This document shows, piece after piece, positions 25,267 through 32,044 of a stretch of 64,000 bases of DNA (position 1 is its first letter; every line of letters starts with the position of its first letter). Source of the DNA: a virus; the UHGV virus genome UHGV-0141439, one strand, 5' to 3'. The translations under genes and the position numbers were made by a program. The notes under the pieces are model-generated. The model did no database searches. It was not told where the DNA came from and saw only the letters and a list, made by a program, of their open reading frames with translations.

Positions 25267-25761
25267 TTATAACTTTTCGTACTGAAGCGGTGAACGCTTA
25301 ATTTCAAAGTGGCCTTCCGATGTGCTACCAAAGCCACCAGCGCCTCGCTCTGTTTCATCGAGTTCATCAACTTCTACCAGCGATACCGGTTCAACACGCT
25401 CAAAAATGCCTTGCATGACCGCCATTCCTGGCTTGAGGCAAACGCCTTCACCACCGGGATCTGTAATCAGTTTTGCCATGATTTCACCGCGATAATCGGA
25501 GTCGATAATTCCTACGCAGTTAGCCAGGCGAGTATGTTTTTTGCAGCCCAATCCGGAACGCGGATAGAGTTTCAGACACCAGCCGGGCGGGATCTCCATA
25601 GCCAGTCCGGTGTACACCCACCAGCTTGAGGAAATTGCACCATTGCTATCGACACATGGTTTTATTTCAACAGCCTCAAAATCCATCGCCGCCGATCCGG
25701 AGGTGGCATAAGCTGGAAGTTTTGCTGCCGGATGTAGGCGTTTCACTTTTACGTAAATCAT
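25267..25761 (-). CDS. dut: dUTP diphosphatase (dUTPase)
   Basis: Motifs RSGLG, GIIDSDYRGE and GGFGSTS. Confidence 0.7.
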   Translation of the reverse strand: MIYVKVKRLHPAAKLPAYATSGSAAMDFEAVEIKPCVDSNGAISSSWWVYTGLAMEIPPGWCLKLYPRSGLGCKKHTRLANCVGIIDSDYRGEIMAKLITDPGGEGVCLKPGMAVMQGIFERVEPVSLVEVDELDETERGAGGFGSTSEGHFEIKRSPLQYEKL

Positions 25762-26234
25762 TGTTTTTTAGCTCTCTGCGTGAATGTGTAAACCCGACGT
25801 TTGATATGTGGAACGGTAGGAACAGGAAGACAGGAACTTTCAATAACTCCTTGCTCCTCCAGCGATCGCACCGCCCGCAAGAACTGCGACGTGTCGCCGC
25901 CAAACTGGCGGGCATAGGTGCTGCCGTTATGAAGTATTTGAGCTATTACCCGAGCTTTTGTCTGGCTGTCACGATATGCGAATAGCCGCACGGCCTCTTC
26001 TGGCGCAATCGCTAACTGATAGCCTTTCCCGGCACGGTGTCGAATGAATCCATGCGCCAGTAGGTTTTTGAGTTCGTTACGAGTGCGAACAGATCCGTAA
26101 CCCAGGAAGTGTGGATTGATAACGACTGGCTTAAACCATTCCGTAGGTGCTTTAGCTAATAGAGCTAACAGCTTCCCGGATAATTCTGGATAGGAAGACG
26201 GGTAACAATTCAGAGATGGGTAATAAGTTTTCAC
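25758..26234 (-). CDS. Hypothetical protein
   Basis: 158-aa ORF, 4-nt overlap with dut. Confidence 0.4.
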   Translation of the reverse strand: MKTYYPSLNCYPSSYPELSGKLLALLAKAPTEWFKPVVINPHFLGYGSVRTRNELKNLLAHGFIRHRAGKGYQLAIAPEEAVRLFAYRDSQTKARVIAQILHNGSTYARQFGGDTSQFLRAVRSLEEQGVIESSCLPVPTVPHIKRRVYTFTQRAKKQ

Positions 26235-26575
26235 CGACGCCCCCTTGCAGGATATCGACCGGCATTAGTATCCGGTGCAATAAAGCCGGTAGTGGGGCGA
26301 GTGAAAGCGAGATTAATCTTCTCGACCATAGTGCGATAATTTTCCTGATAGTGGGCCAGGAGTTTTTCGGCGGCAATGATGGTTACTTTCCGGACGTAGC
26401 TTTCTGCTTCCTCCAGATTTCGCCAGTTTTTTTCGAGGGTAAACACAGGGACGGCCTCAAGCCCGGTCATGATGCCGAACACAACGACAGCATGACTGTT
26501 CTTAACACCAGCGGCGAAGGTTACGGTGTAACCATCCACCTTGAAGCGTCTTGATTCCGTGATTTGACTCTGCAA
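26231..26575 (-). CDS. Hypothetical protein
   Basis: 114-aa ORF. Confidence 0.4.
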   Translation of the reverse strand: MQSQITESRRFKVDGYTVTFAAGVKNSHAVVVFGIMTGLEAVPVFTLEKNWRNLEEAESYVRKVTIIAAEKLLAHYQENYRTMVEKINLAFTRPTTGFIAPDTNAGRYPARGRR

Positions 26576-26633
26576 AGCACCCTCCTAAATAGGCGAGGGT
26601 ACTTTACAGCAAAGACGTTAATCTAAAAAGATG

Positions 26634-26650
26634 TGTTAGAAATTTAATTT
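26634..26650. promoter_or_regulatory. 17-bp operator-like site TGTTAGAAATTTAATTT
   Basis: Exact consensus; overlaps the cre stop. Confidence 0.5.
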
Positions 26651-27677
26651 ACGAATCCATCAGGCGGCTATTAGCCCCCACAGACACGCCGCCACGGCGA
26701 AGATACCGCATAAGTGTTTCCGGTTTCTTCCAGGTTCCTTCCTGCATGATCTCCACCATAGACACCTGCTTTTCAGCCATATCAATAGCGGCCCCGACGC
26801 GTGCACTATGCCCGGTCCACGTCCGGTATCTTCCTTTGTTTGGCGTAGCATCTCTTTTATTCAGCAACACCCAGGCGTCGCTGAATATTTTCTCCATTGC
26901 AGGTGCAGTAAGGGGCGTTGTCGTGATCCTGGCCTTATTGCTACGGTGTATCGGCGGGAACAGCACTGCGTCAGGATGTTCGCGAAGCCCGGAAACATCC
27001 AGCCAGTCATTCAGCACAGCGGTAGTGCGACGGGAAAGCACCTTATCAAGCCCGGCGGCGGTCGTTATTGTCTTCGTGTGTGAAATATGTAGCGTGACAG
27101 TGTCACCTGTTTGGTCCAGATCTCCTACACGAATACGCGAGATTTCCGACATACGCATCAGCGTATTGTATGCAACAAAGAGAAAAGCCCGGTTGCGCAG
27201 GTCCACCAGCCGTTCTGACCTGGACAACAGGACGTCGAGCAGTTTCAGATCGTCCCACCGCAGCGGTATAGCCTGGCCTGTTCGTTCGCCTTTTTCAGTT
27301 GCCGCTTCGCGCCGGATGCGCCGCATAGCCAGAGAAACACTTTTATCATCCGAAAGTGGCGGAAGGCCACAATGCGAAAGCAGCATGTTCAGCATGGCGT
27401 AGTGCTTATCAATGGTGGTCGAAGCCAGATCGGCATCATGCAGCTGAAGAAAATACTCGCGGGCCATTTCTGGTGAGATCGGAAACCAGGCAAGCTGGCG
27501 AGCGTGACACCAGCGCGCCCAGGAATGAAACACCAAACGGAGGTCGCGCAGAGTATTCGGCGCATAAGCTCCCTGGTCATTCATGAACCGCATAAAGTTT
27601 TCTGCGGCTTCCTGGTACTCTTTGCCAATGTTGCGCAGAAAACCACCGGAACTGCCAGAGATAATTAATTCACTCAT
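26649..27677 (-). CDS. cre: Cre-type tyrosine recombinase
   Basis: 342 aa, collinear with P1 Cre (WFP..PE..R(E/D)YLL, VSL(A/V)MRRIR, AYNTL(M/L)R..EI.RIRV.D, W(T/S)GHSARVGAA.DMA, EIMQ.G.W); lox-like site upstream. Confidence 0.85.
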   Translation of the reverse strand: MSELIISGSSGGFLRNIGKEYQEAAENFMRFMNDQGAYAPNTLRDLRLVFHSWARWCHARQLAWFPISPEMAREYFLQLHDADLASTTIDKHYAMLNMLLSHCGLPPLSDDKSVSLAMRRIRREAATEKGERTGQAIPLRWDDLKLLDVLLSRSERLVDLRNRAFLFVAYNTLMRMSEISRIRVGDLDQTGDTVTLHISHTKTITTAAGLDKVLSRRTTAVLNDWLDVSGLREHPDAVLFPPIHRSNKARITTTPLTAPAMEKIFSDAWVLLNKRDATPNKGRYRTWTGHSARVGAAIDMAEKQVSMVEIMQEGTWKKPETLMRYLRRGGVSVGANSRLMDS

Positions 27678-27828
27678 GAAACTATTTAACCTCTATATAC
27701 AGATGACGCTACGCGAAAAATATAAAAATGACAGGGTAGCTATAAGTTAATTTTCAAGATTCAAGCCTTTGATTCGATGCACGTATTTTCAGTGATGTCA
27801 ATACTGATCATCTACCCATGATTATAGC

Positions 27829-27862
27829 CTAACTTTAAATAATGCCAATTATCTAAAGTTAG
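27829..27862. other. lox-like site: 13-bp inverted repeats around an 8-bp spacer (CTAACTTTAAATA-ATGCCAAT-TATCTAAAGTTAG)
   Basis: Read directly; 12 of 13 arm positions are symmetric; about 150 bp upstream of cre; same 34-bp architecture as loxP but different sequence. Confidence 0.6.
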
Positions 27863-28034
27863 AAATTTAGGAATTTTTTTCCTTTCCGCGCAGATGGGCA
27901 ATGCATTGCTGGTGTGGGCTTTAAGTTATGCCTGGCAGTTTTTAAGCAGAATTTTCTAAATTGGATGATAAAAAAATGCATCTTGATCCTTTACTCACCC
28001 TGTTATTCGGCATAGATTTGTCATAGTAATTTTA

Positions 28035-28051
28035 TGTTAGAAAACTAAATC
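28035..28051. promoter_or_regulatory. 17-bp operator-like site TGTTAGAAAACTAAATC
   Basis: 12 bp upstream of the 28063 start codon. Confidence 0.5.
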
Positions 28052-28062
28052 GAGTAGGAATA

Positions 28063-29100
28063 ATGAGTAAGAAGTCGATCGAGAAAGAGTACAAACGGTT
28101 CCTGCAAACCGCTGAACGGTGGAAAGAGCTGGTGGTCGCAAACTCTGTTTTCCATGATACCAGTTATTCCGGCGAGGAATTCCGCCATGTTGCACTAACA
28201 CATGATCAGAATGTGCTAGAAGAAGCTGAAAAGTGCCTCACAGAATGGAAAGCCTTTGTTGACTTGTGCCGTAACGCTGACGGCAAAGCGTCTAACATTG
28301 TTGAGTCTGTATATTCTCCGATCCCATTCATTATCGAGGACACAAATCAAAGCACGCATATTGTTGTGCAAAGCGCGACCACCACCCGCTCATTTACGCG
28401 CGAAAATCTGCTCAAAAAATATGATGCAATTATAAAGAAAAGCCTGAAAAACAAGATATTTTCGCAGATTGTTGGTGCACTTGAAGAAGAGCGCCGTTTT
28501 TTCGCATCAGAACCTGAAGGGGAAGTTTACCGGGCGCGCAAAGATGGATACACAGATGTAGTGCTTACAACAAACATTGAAGGCAGCAATGCTCTGTCAC
28601 GATTCAGGGTAGGCGCACACGGAGCCTTAGTGTTCGCAAAACTTCCGAACACCACAGTGCCCGTTGTTAATAATGTCGGCGAACGTCGCAGCATTACTAT
28701 TTATTCTGGGGTTGAGTCGATACCTTGCGGCCTGCTTGGTGACTTTAGTCTCTATCGCGTTCGCGATCTGGAGAAACACCAACCAAGCTATGTTGCGAAG
28801 TCATACATCTTGCGAAACATCGACATCCGCAATGAGAGCTTAAAGAACAAATCAGCCAAAATGCTTGAGGAAGCCGATCCGGCTATTCGCCATATCATTG
28901 AGCGTAAAATACAGACAGCACGCGAAGCGATGGCGAGACTGAATAAAATGGATCTGGAGTTGTTAGACGTAATGATGACATCCGGAGATGACCTGACAGG
29001 CATAAAACTGACAGACGCGCGGAAAAGATACGGTAAAACCATAGAAGAACGTTACGGGTTCACTTTCTCCCAAACACAGCACGCCGCTAAACTCTGGTAA
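28063..29100 (+). CDS. Hypothetical 345-aa protein; candidate C1-type immunity repressor by position only
   Basis: Convergent with pacB, next to lox and cre (the place c1 occupies in P1), with an operator-like site over its promoter; no sequence motif recognised. Confidence 0.4.
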   Translation: MSKKSIEKEYKRFLQTAERWKELVVANSVFHDTSYSGEEFRHVALTHDQNVLEEAEKCLTEWKAFVDLCRNADGKASNIVESVYSPIPFIIEDTNQSTHIVVQSATTTRSFTRENLLKKYDAIIKKSLKNKIFSQIVGALEEERRFFASEPEGEVYRARKDGYTDVVLTTNIEGSNALSRFRVGAHGALVFAKLPNTTVPVVNNVGERRSITIYSGVESIPCGLLGDFSLYRVRDLEKHQPSYVAKSYILRNIDIRNESLKNKSAKMLEEADPAIRHIIERKIQTAREAMARLNKMDLELLDVMMTSGDDLTGIKLTDARKRYGKTIEERYGFTFSQTQHAAKLW

Positions 29101-29171: not shown

Positions 29172-30680
29172 TCAAATATCCAGATCTGGCATTTCTACAT
29201 CTGCAAGAACCTGATCGCGGAAGGTAGCCATTTCAGCGCCGATATCTTCATTAGCAGGAACATAGTCCACCAGCATTGTAAAGCAGTAGGTATCCCATCG
29301 GTCAGGTGATTTGATGTTCAGCTTTTGCCGCATGTGCTCCTTGCGCATCATCGCCATCTTCCCTTCTTCATTAAGTAAAAAGGGGATTTTTGACGCTTGC
29401 TCTGCCGTTTTAGGGTCGCTGTCTATTCGCATACGACCTGACTTTATGGCATCACGAGCCATAATATTTGCGTAGGCACGCTGGTTAACAAAACGCTCCT
29501 TGTCTTTGTTCGAAAACATGGGTTTCCCCCACCGAATCCGTACCGGATTAGCCCCACGGCGCACCAGCTGCGCACAGGTATCTGAACCAAAACCGTCTGC
29601 GTCAACCGCGATTGTAATATTCGGGTATTTATCCGGCGTGCATTCGTTGTATATAAAGTCAGCAAAAGCCAGCGGGTCCATAGTCCCTGGCATTTCCATT
29701 ACCTTAAAGTTAACAACACGCCGCTTTTCCCGGTGACCAGACACTTTACAGATATTAAGAACTGACTTGTCTCGCCCGTTACCAACGTCAGCAGTAGCCA
29801 CCCATCCCCAGTTTTTCTCCAACAACACCTTGCGCCGCGCAGCGCGATCGCATTCATCACGACCAAGCAAATAGCCGTTAATCTCCCGAGGAAACTGACC
29901 AAGAACCTTGACCATGTACTCAATAGAATCGCGCCCGCCATATTCTAGGAGTTTCTGCCTGATGAATTGTGGTGTGACGAACGGTGATTCTTCTGAGTTA
30001 AGAACAATTGCTGTCCAGATCCCTTTCGGGTTGTCTGGGGTTTTAGCTTGAGAATGGTGCGAATCGTAGAAATAACCACTTGGCCTTGTTGGCTGGGATA
30101 GCATCAACATTCGGTTATCTTCTTCAGTCAGAGCGCCAGTCATTACGCCGATCGCTTTATCAGATATACCTGATGCTTCATCCAGAATTAGAAGCAAATG
30201 TGCCGCGTGCTCCCCCGCCAGAGCTTCTTCGTTACCGAGTCGATAGCCTTTGCAGAGAACTTCCCAGATCCCCTTTCGAGAGCGTTCATAAAACATGGTG
30301 TCAGACAGGACAAAATAGGTCTGTAACCACCCATGACGCTTAACGGCATTCGCCCAATACTGTTTAACGTATTTGAATACACCTGTCTTAACCTGACCTA
30401 TTTTGTTAGCAACAATGATGACACGGGCATCGGGGAACAGAATCAAATAAATCAGCAACAACATAGCCGTTAGCGACGATTTCCCTGTACCGTGACCAGA
30501 GGTAACAGTGGTTCTGCTCCCTTTTTGCTGTACGGACTGGATAATCTCCTGCTGCTGGTGGGAGGGAAACATCCCGAATATATCAACAACAGCCTGGGTA
30601 AAGTTGTAGCGGTATTTGATTACCATATCGCGCCAGCGTGGATCGCTGGTGACGCATTTAATCTTGCGCCCACCAGCCAT
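29172..30680 (-). CDS. pacB: Terminase large subunit (PacB-type)
   Basis: 502 aa; Walker A SGHGTGKSS, Walker B LLILDEAS; follows the pacA-like gene. Confidence 0.75.
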   Translation of the reverse strand: MAGGRKIKCVTSDPRWRDMVIKYRYNFTQAVVDIFGMFPSHQQQEIIQSVQQKGSRTTVTSGHGTGKSSLTAMLLLIYLILFPDARVIIVANKIGQVKTGVFKYVKQYWANAVKRHGWLQTYFVLSDTMFYERSRKGIWEVLCKGYRLGNEEALAGEHAAHLLLILDEASGISDKAIGVMTGALTEEDNRMLMLSQPTRPSGYFYDSHHSQAKTPDNPKGIWTAIVLNSEESPFVTPQFIRQKLLEYGGRDSIEYMVKVLGQFPREINGYLLGRDECDRAARRKVLLEKNWGWVATADVGNGRDKSVLNICKVSGHREKRRVVNFKVMEMPGTMDPLAFADFIYNECTPDKYPNITIAVDADGFGSDTCAQLVRRGANPVRIRWGKPMFSNKDKERFVNQRAYANIMARDAIKSGRMRIDSDPKTAEQASKIPFLLNEEGKMAMMRKEHMRQKLNIKSPDRWDTYCFTMLVDYVPANEDIGAEMATFRDQVLADVEMPDLDI

Positions 30681-32044
30681 TAGTCATCCTCCGGCGGTTC
30701 TATCGCAATATCATCATCTCCGGCGTCATACCCTGCATCTGATGCATCATAATCACCGTAAATTTCAGCCGTTGCCGAAGGGTCAATGTCCAACTCTTCA
30801 TCGTTGGCCTCGAATTCCCCAGCCTTACGCTCGCCATTGTGGTCGTAATCTCCGCACCCCAGATCTTCAACAATGGTTGCCACATCCGCCCGGCGCTCTG
30901 CCAGCCATTGCGGATGGTTAGCCTGAAGCGATGCAAACTCCTTCGCTTCTTTGTCCAGCTGTTCATCATCAACATCATTGATGTCAGAAACTGGAGGTTC
31001 GAGAAGAGTGATAGCTTTCGCCGCGCGCGCCGCGAGGATAGCCGGGACACTGACACCCTGACGCTCGATGTATTCAGCAACACCGATATCGTCCAGCTCC
31101 TCGCGCTCACGCATACGTATAGCGGCGGCGATAACTCTGGCTGCGCGTGCGTCAGCGCCAATGCGATATTCAATCTCTTTGCCACGCTGTTCGGCCTGTA
31201 GGCGTGCTAATTCGAGTTTTTCTCTGGCCTCGGCCTCTCTGAATGCTTGCTGGCGAGCACCCTGACGAAGTTTTTCATCACCCTGTCGCAGCTTTTGTTC
31301 GGACTGATATATCGCTGCCAACCTACTGATAAAATCGTTCATGTAGTAGGCCGCGTCACTGATTAGACCGAGAAGTCGCTGCCCAGGGTGCATTCCTTCT
31401 GGCTGTTCATCACCCAGGGCGTCTATCTCCGCCTGTAGGCGTTCGGCCTCCTGATCAACAATGCTTTGGTACTGAAGTGCGCGTTCTTGCGCCATTTGAA
31501 TTGCTAACCGCAGGTGCTCTTCTGCGCCGTTCTTCATCATGTCGCGAGCCACACTCGTAGTGGGCAACGTGGCACGCTGCACAGCACCGCCAGGGATCAT
31601 TGCTGAAGATCCCTCGATTTTTGAGGCGCATTTATCTTCGGTGGGGATCATTTTCGCCATTTTTTCGCGCAATGATCTCCTGACAGATTCTTTTATCTCA
31701 TTGTTATTATTTGCATTATTTTCATGATCCGAAGTTTTCTTTCTCGGCATACTTCGGAAAGAACCTGTGCCCTGCGAATTGTCAATTTCTGTAAATTTTG
31801 TTGTTTCTGTACCCTCTTCTGGTCTTTTTTTTGCTCTTCCTGCCCGTTTTTTTTGAGGTGATTTGGTGCTTTTTTTTGTAGTCTTCACCTGCGACCGCAC
31901 CTCATTTTTTTTCATATTGAGATGCTTTCTGGCGGTATTGAAGCTAAGGTCGTGTTGCTCGCAGTATTCCTTTACGGTGATCCCTTTTTCTTCACGCAAC
32001 GCTATAAATTTGGCGCGGTGCTCTTCCCAATTAACCAGACTCAT
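30680..32044 (-). CDS. pacA: Terminase small subunit (PacA-type) with acidic C-terminus
   Basis: 454 aa; N-terminal HTH-like segment; stop overlaps the pacB start; contains a GATC cluster. Confidence 0.55.
   Translation of the reverse strand: MSLVNWEEHRAKFIALREEKGITVKEYCEQHDLSFNTARKHLNMKKNEVRSQVKTTKKSTKSPQKKRAGRAKKRPEEGTETTKFTEIDNSQGTGSFRSMPRKKTSDHENNANNNNEIKESVRRSLREKMAKMIPTEDKCASKIEGSSAMIPGGAVQRATLPTTSVARDMMKNGAEEHLRLAIQMAQERALQYQSIVDQEAERLQAEIDALGDEQPEGMHPGQRLLGLISDAAYYMNDFISRLAAIYQSEQKLRQGDEKLRQGARQQAFREAEAREKLELARLQAEQRGKEIEYRIGADARAARVIAAAIRMREREELDDIGVAEYIERQGVSVPAILAARAAKAITLLEPPVSDINDVDDEQLDKEAKEFASLQANHPQWLAERRADVATIVEDLGCGDYDHNGERKAGEFEANDEELDIDPSATAEIYGDYDASDAGYDAGDDDIAIEPPEDD
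31595..31729. other. Cluster of five GATC sites (TGATC(C/T) repeats in both orientations) inside pacA: candidate pac site
   Basis: GATC at 31595, 31608, 31646, 31674 and 31726; GGGATCATT occurs twice. Confidence 0.4.

Follow-up and report, generated by a model that had tools for sequence, protein, structure and literature searches.

The DNA examined here, a window of 64 kb (64,000 nucleotides) from a viral genome, almost certainly carries the dre-rox module of an E. coli phage-plasmid that is D6-like and of P1 type, and, as judged by sequence, its recombinase and recombination site are the already known Dre/rox pair rather than a new one. In a protein comparison, the translation of the recombinase gene is identical at 342/342 residues to both Dre entries of Escherichia/Salmonella phage D6, AAV84949.1 (AY753669) and ASR76376.1 (MF356679). 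The site, TAACTTTAAATAATGCCAATTATCTAAAGTTA (27830..27861), differs from the published rox, TAACTTTAAATAATGCCAATTATTTAAAGTTA, solely by a T to C change at 27853. It is 31/32 identical to the misc_recomb feature of AY753669, which is described as "region of crossover (rox) site for Dre recombinase". The same holds for the half sites of rox found at either end of MF356679, the complete D6 genome, which is linearised through the middle of rox; the rox primers in the supplement of PMC4957104 agree with the published rox sequence as well. In addition, a megablast search with 26500..28100 against phage records matched phage D6 only, where the matched part is annotated with dre, rox, and c1, and the gene order of the window, dut, orf3, orf2, dre, rox, c1, pacB, pacA, is that of both AY753669 (the D6 immC region) and MF356679 (Table 1). 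The window thus has what characterises the D6 type, namely the Dre protein, a 32-bp rox with 14-bp inverted arms and a GCCA core, and a location of the site between dre and c1 and beside pacB and pacA; the distance of 152 nt from the rox palindrome to the dre start codon, downstream of it, is also that of D6. None of the results speaks against this identification. What distinguishes the window from D6 is the T to C change in rox, 25 synonymous changes in dre, and a stretch of about 110 bp to the right of rox that is only 54% identical.

Table 1. Features of the dre-rox region in the window, followed by examples of lox-like sites at distant loci.
Feature	Position	Strand	Description
dUTPase gene (dut)	25267-25761	minus	118 bits, NCBIfam equivalog; three genes downstream of dre, as in D6
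Small ORFs between dut and dre (orf3 and orf2 of D6)	25758..26234, 26231..26575		No family match
dre, Cre-family tyrosine recombinase	26649..27677	minus	ORF of 342 aa; 342/342 identity to D6 Dre
Putative promoter facing dre	27821..27848	minus	-35 TTGGCA 27848..27843, 16-nt spacer, -10 TATAAT 27826..27821
rox site, 32 bp	27830..27861	plus	TAACTTTAAATAAT GCCA ATTATCTAAAGTTA; 31/32 identity to annotated D6 rox
rox left arm, dre-proximal	27830..27843	plus	Canonical; identical to D6
rox asymmetric 4-bp core	27844..27847	plus	GCCA, expected to set site orientation; from repeat search and D6 comparison
rox right arm, c1-proximal	27848..27861	plus	ATTATCTAAAGTTA vs ATTATTTAAAGTTA in D6; carries the natural substitution
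Polymorphic rox base	27853	plus	C in window, T in D6; numbered 24 in the 32-bp rox and 25 in the 34-bp frame
c1 repressor homologue	28063..29100	plus	Corresponds to c1 of AY753669 and D6_1 of MF356679
pacB terminase gene	29172..30680	minus	Order and length as in D6 records
pacA terminase gene	30680..32044	minus	Order and length as in D6 records
Example distant lox-like sites	L005:1242-1275, L023:1248-1281, L034:1246-1279

The first-pass annotation of this region had proposed a Cre-like recombinase with a lox-like site of its own and a specificity distinct from that of Cre/loxP, of interest for phage-plasmid dimer resolution and as an orthogonal tool. As a description this agrees with Dre/rox, a Cre-family system with exactly these properties in a P1-type phage-plasmid, but the novelty that it implied for the pair does not survive a protein that is 100% identical to Dre and a site that matches rox at 31/32 positions. 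The heterospecificity of Dre/rox with respect to Cre/loxP is said to have been established by Sauer and McDermott in 2004, and since the Dre protein is identical, it carries over to the window's recombinase for canonical rox. All three of PMC3553980, Karimova et al. 2016 (PMC4957104), and Chuang et al. 2016 (PMC4777119) credit the system itself to Sauer and McDermott 2004. According to the same three papers, canonical rox is recombined by Dre in vitro and in the cells of both E. coli and mammals, the related recombinases Vika and Nigri do not recombine rox, and Dre/rox is handled as a pair of its own, in wide use as an orthogonal tool beside Cre/loxP; moreover, a pair of canonical rox sites is recombined by Dre without accessory factors (PMC4777119, PMC4957104). 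The recombination assay and the cross-tests with Cre/loxP that the first-pass annotation suggested already exist in print for canonical rox.

Dre belongs to the tyrosine recombinase superfamily, as it has both a PF00589 match above cut-off and the R-K-H-R-(H/W)-Y residues. Its catalytic domain matches the Pfam family Phage_integrase (PF00589) with an E value of 5e-17 and a score of 62.6 bits (cut-off 27.1), and the match of its N-terminal SAM-like domain has 21.6 bits, just under the curated 22.3. All catalytic residues, namely R175, K202, H290, R293, W316, and Y325, are intact, and the Dre catalytic residues listed in PMC4777119 agree with those of the window protein. Together with a full-length alignment to the crystal-structure chains of P1 Cre (E value 5e-69, residues 22-341 against Cre 21-340), this bears out the earlier view of the recombinase as clearly Cre-like. 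The protein is a Cre homologue and not Cre itself, the identity of Dre and Cre being about 37-40% (PMC3553980; PMC4957104 supplement). At the nucleotide level, the window's dre differs from that of D6 at 25 positions, which are spread over codons 34 to 342 and are all synonymous. Given about 248 synonymous and about 778 non-synonymous sites in the gene, the probability of 25/25 synonymous differences under random placement is about 4e-16; therefore, dre is under strong purifying selection and is not decaying. It may be added that selection of this strength acts on a gene that is thought to be non-essential for the plasmid.

The genomic setting is that of a well-populated group of plasmids. When 25 kb around the site were compared, the window was about 91% identical to D6 over the adjoining ~12 kb to the right of rox. 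A 1.6-kb segment of the region is present in 120 PLSDB plasmids (98 from Escherichia, 16 from Salmonella, and 6 from Shigella) and in 101 of 5426 complete E. coli genomes, where it is always plasmid-borne, mostly on plasmids of about 90 kb, at identities of up to 99.9%. D6-like plasmid prophages are indeed a recognised group (PMC6799933). The c1 homologue matches the NCBIfam family phage_rep_C1 weakly, with 23 bits against a cut-off of 500, and a search for the P1-type C1 operator ATTGCTCTAATAAATTT with up to 3 mismatches gave no match across the 64 kb. Therefore, the D6-type immunity must use operators unlike those of P1. A similar search for clusters of the P1-type pac hexamer found scattered hexamers only.

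The architecture of the site can be read in more than one frame. A repeat search detects a single strong inverted repeat, 27829-27843 / 27848-27862, with 15-nt arms that are 93% complementary and 4 nt between them, so that the palindrome reads as 15-4-15 with one mismatch. The rox pattern is unique in the 64 kb with 3 mismatches allowed, and 0 matches are expected from 100 shuffles; therefore, the site is real and not a chance match. In the literature, rox is defined by 14-bp arms and a 4-bp spacer (PMC4777119), as it also is in the AY753669 misc_recomb feature, although Karimova et al. align it with loxP and pox in a 13-8-13 frame with eight spacer positions (PMC4957104). Applied to the 34 bp at 27829..27862, the loxP-style frame gives CTAACTTTAAATA / ATGCCAAT / TATCTAAAGTTAG, in which there is one mismatch between the arms and the two outermost "spacer" bases on each side are complementary to each other. 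Hence the "exact 13-8-13" architecture of the first-pass annotation is legitimate as a loxP-style frame, but not as an exact description, given the arm mismatch, the 15-4-15 palindrome, and the published 14-4-14 definition. Mutagenesis indicates that the crossover region of rox reaches at least one base into each arm, so that in function it resembles the loxP spacer more than a core of 4 bp would suggest (PMC4777119). The arms and spacer had also been called different from those of loxP, which is correct in that the site is not loxP (ATAACTTCGTATA, 8-bp spacer, TATACGAAGTTAT) but overstated, as 20-21 of the 34 positions are identical and the arms differ mainly at positions 8-10. Here loxP has CGT and rox has TAA, whereas the outer TAACTT and the inner ATA of the arms are common to both.

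The resemblance to P1 extends beyond the recombinase family, fold, and catalytic residues, since in both cases a palindrome lies upstream of the recombinase gene and near c1 and the pac genes of a P1-type phage-plasmid. The differences are in the details: the asymmetric core is 4 bp in rox and 8 bp in loxP, and the site is 152 nt from the start codon in the window but about 430 nt in P1, where cra, which is absent from the window's interval, lies between. By homology with Cre, each rox arm would be bound by one Dre monomer, and a Dre tetramer would synapse two rox sites. Tyr325 is predicted to cleave on either side of the central crossover region, with strand exchange proceeding through a Holliday junction and without accessory proteins, and the asymmetric core would fix the orientation of the site. 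By analogy with Cre/loxP of P1, dre-rox would resolve dimers of the plasmid prophage to monomers before partition, and, once terminally redundant phage DNA has been injected, it could also make this DNA circular. Such P1-like roles agree with the conserved position of rox beside c1 and the pac genes. We infer both roles for D6-like plasmids by this analogy, and no direct test of either in these plasmids was found in the literature.

The site may have a further function, as the best sigma-70 match of the window overlaps it. This putative promoter agrees with the consensus at 11/12 positions, is the only match of at least 11/12 in 64 kb on either strand, and faces dre; its -35 element spans the rox core, its spacer is the rox left arm, and its -10 element lies just outside rox. 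It is therefore conceivable, though doubtful, that the palindrome doubles as the operator of a dre promoter and that Dre bound at rox represses dre, a role that would be added to recombination rather than replace it. The TATAAT of the -10 element speaks for this, as 31/31 D6-like loci keep it, including those with a diverged adjoining flank. The conservation of the -35 element carries no such information, because it lies inside rox and is conserved trivially. Moreover, the promoter is known as a consensus match, and at the looser threshold of the scan the number of promoter-like matches near rox does not exceed that in shuffled sequences. Known and distantly related systems also argue against an operator. 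In P1, the three annotated cre promoters lie clear of lox, at 104-424 bp from its centre, in contrast to the putative dre promoter across rox. In 35 distant relatives, no comparably strong promoter with its -35 element across the core of the site was found; eight of the 35 have a 10/12 match of a different geometry. If the operator did exist, occupancy of rox by Dre would shut off the synthesis of Dre itself, an arrangement absent from P1. The placement of native rox inside a near-consensus bacterial promoter may matter for the regulation of dre.

The single difference from published rox is a natural allele that is widespread among related elements. A scan of IMG/VR with a rox pattern returned 30 contigs, of which 21/30 have T and 9/30 have C at the variable base, which the pattern left open; the invariance of the left arm across these 30 contigs follows from the construction of the pattern. 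In addition, 14 plasmid records are at least 99% identical to the window allele over the surrounding 62 bp. Enough flank was available in 27 viral contigs, and all 27 have a Dre gene at the same 152-nt spacing from rox, the product of which is 89.5-100% identical to the window protein. Among the viral contigs carrying both rox and Dre, no amino-acid change in Dre co-varies with the C/T allele. Two loci (L093 and L105) have a dre that is nucleotide-identical to that of the window and yet a T-type rox, and two others (L085 and L106) encode a Dre protein identical to the window's beside a C-type rox. As both alleles thus occur beside an unchanged Dre, there is one recombinase with a polymorphic site and not a new specificity. 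For the same reason, the C-allele rox is most likely still a working Dre substrate. The equivalent arm position is also the most variable one in the natural sites of distant relatives, where it is T, C, or A, which fits tolerance of the C allele. Roughly a third of the natural elements have the C allele with unchanged Dre, which constitutes a natural experiment on half-site tolerance.

The same substitution could instead mean that Dre binds the c1-side arm more weakly, as Cre does in the case of the engineered arms of lox66/lox71, and that rox is attenuated or decaying in such elements. There are some grounds for this. The C breaks the otherwise perfect symmetry of the rox arms, and a literature search for the C-allele sequence found no paper with it. 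Furthermore, position 25 belongs to the trio 25-27, the mirror image of 8-10, that sets rox and pox apart from loxP (PMC4957104 supplement), and in the Cre-loxP structure these positions are near the specificity residues K43, R259, and G263 (PMC4957104). Nevertheless, we regard a weakened arm as quite improbable. The allele is frequent, in 9/30 viral contigs and in the 14 plasmid records, it co-occurs with Dre proteins of 89.5% to 100% identity, it lies at a position that varies most among the sites of distant relatives, and the adjoining dre is intact and under strong purifying selection. Two candidate sources of information on the allele were set aside. The "one point mutation" in E. coli DEC12A (Karimova et al.) concerns the protein, at 99.7% identity, and not a rox allele, and pox is no test of the window's C allele, as its arm difference is at an outer position and that of the window at an inner one (10/25). 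As a separate observation, rox is conserved across about 10% divergence of the Dre protein: L089 and L100, with a Dre 94% identical to that of D6, have the same rox at the same 152-nt spacing, and L084 and L102, with a Dre 89.5% identical to that of D6, have the C allele, a different left flank (atatac), and again the 152-nt spacing.

Identity to D6 changes abruptly beside the site. It is 94% from the dre start to rox, 97% in rox itself, only 54% in the ~110 bp directly to the right of rox (27862..27975), and 90% further toward c1, so that the segments on the two sides of the diverged patch are 90-97% identical to D6. With this patch at 27862-27975, the recombination site resembles a mosaic boundary. 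In the right arm, the choice of C or T is linked to the haplotype of the right flank (taaaat, gaaatc, or gaaatt), which is the pattern expected from exchange at rox between co-resident plasmids. One may combine these observations in a single scheme, in which crossover takes place at rox, rox also serves as operator for the dre promoter, the C allele tunes Dre occupancy or the order of strand exchange, and recombination at rox between co-resident plasmids explains the linkage of the allele with the patch; as a whole, however, such a scheme is unlikely.

A Cre/lox-type pair of undescribed specificity is extremely improbable, even though the site differs from loxP at 13/34 positions, Cre and the protein share only about 37-40% identity (PMC3553980; PMC4957104 supplement), and near-identical plasmids are annotated only with a "tyrosine-type recombinase/integrase" and without the site, as the protein and the site are those of the published system to 100% and 31/32, the D6 records annotate dre and rox explicitly, and the C allele comes without any accompanying substitution in Dre. 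The generic label of the gene and the missing annotation of rox in the plasmid records do explain why the known Dre/rox pair can look new from sequence alone, and further re-discoveries are to be expected. As a discovery the pair has little weight, since Dre/rox is a textbook case of a system orthogonal to Cre/loxP and the sampling of D6-like phage-plasmids is good.

Beyond the D6-like elements, the nearest characterised relative of Dre is Panto from Pantoea sp. aB, with its site pox, at 52-53% identity (PMC4957104). The arms of pox and rox are one nucleotide apart, and Dre and Panto each recombine both sites (PMC4957104); the difference is at the outer arm position, and four of the eight central positions differ as well. 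In a scan of one genome per species, Dre relatives had only 41-47% identity; their genera were Pantoea, Rahnella, Mixta, and Erwinia. A site with the 13-8-13 layout and the pattern xTAACTT(T/C)ATATA-ATnnnnnT is present in 35 of 74 distant Dre/Panto-like loci (L004-L077), and in 33 of these 35 it lies 150-300 nt upstream of the recombinase gene (examples in Table 1). In two of them, L005 and L023, the central 8 bp, ATTGGCAT, are the central 8 bp of rox in gene orientation. These distant lox-like sites form a pool that may cross-react with Dre or Panto.
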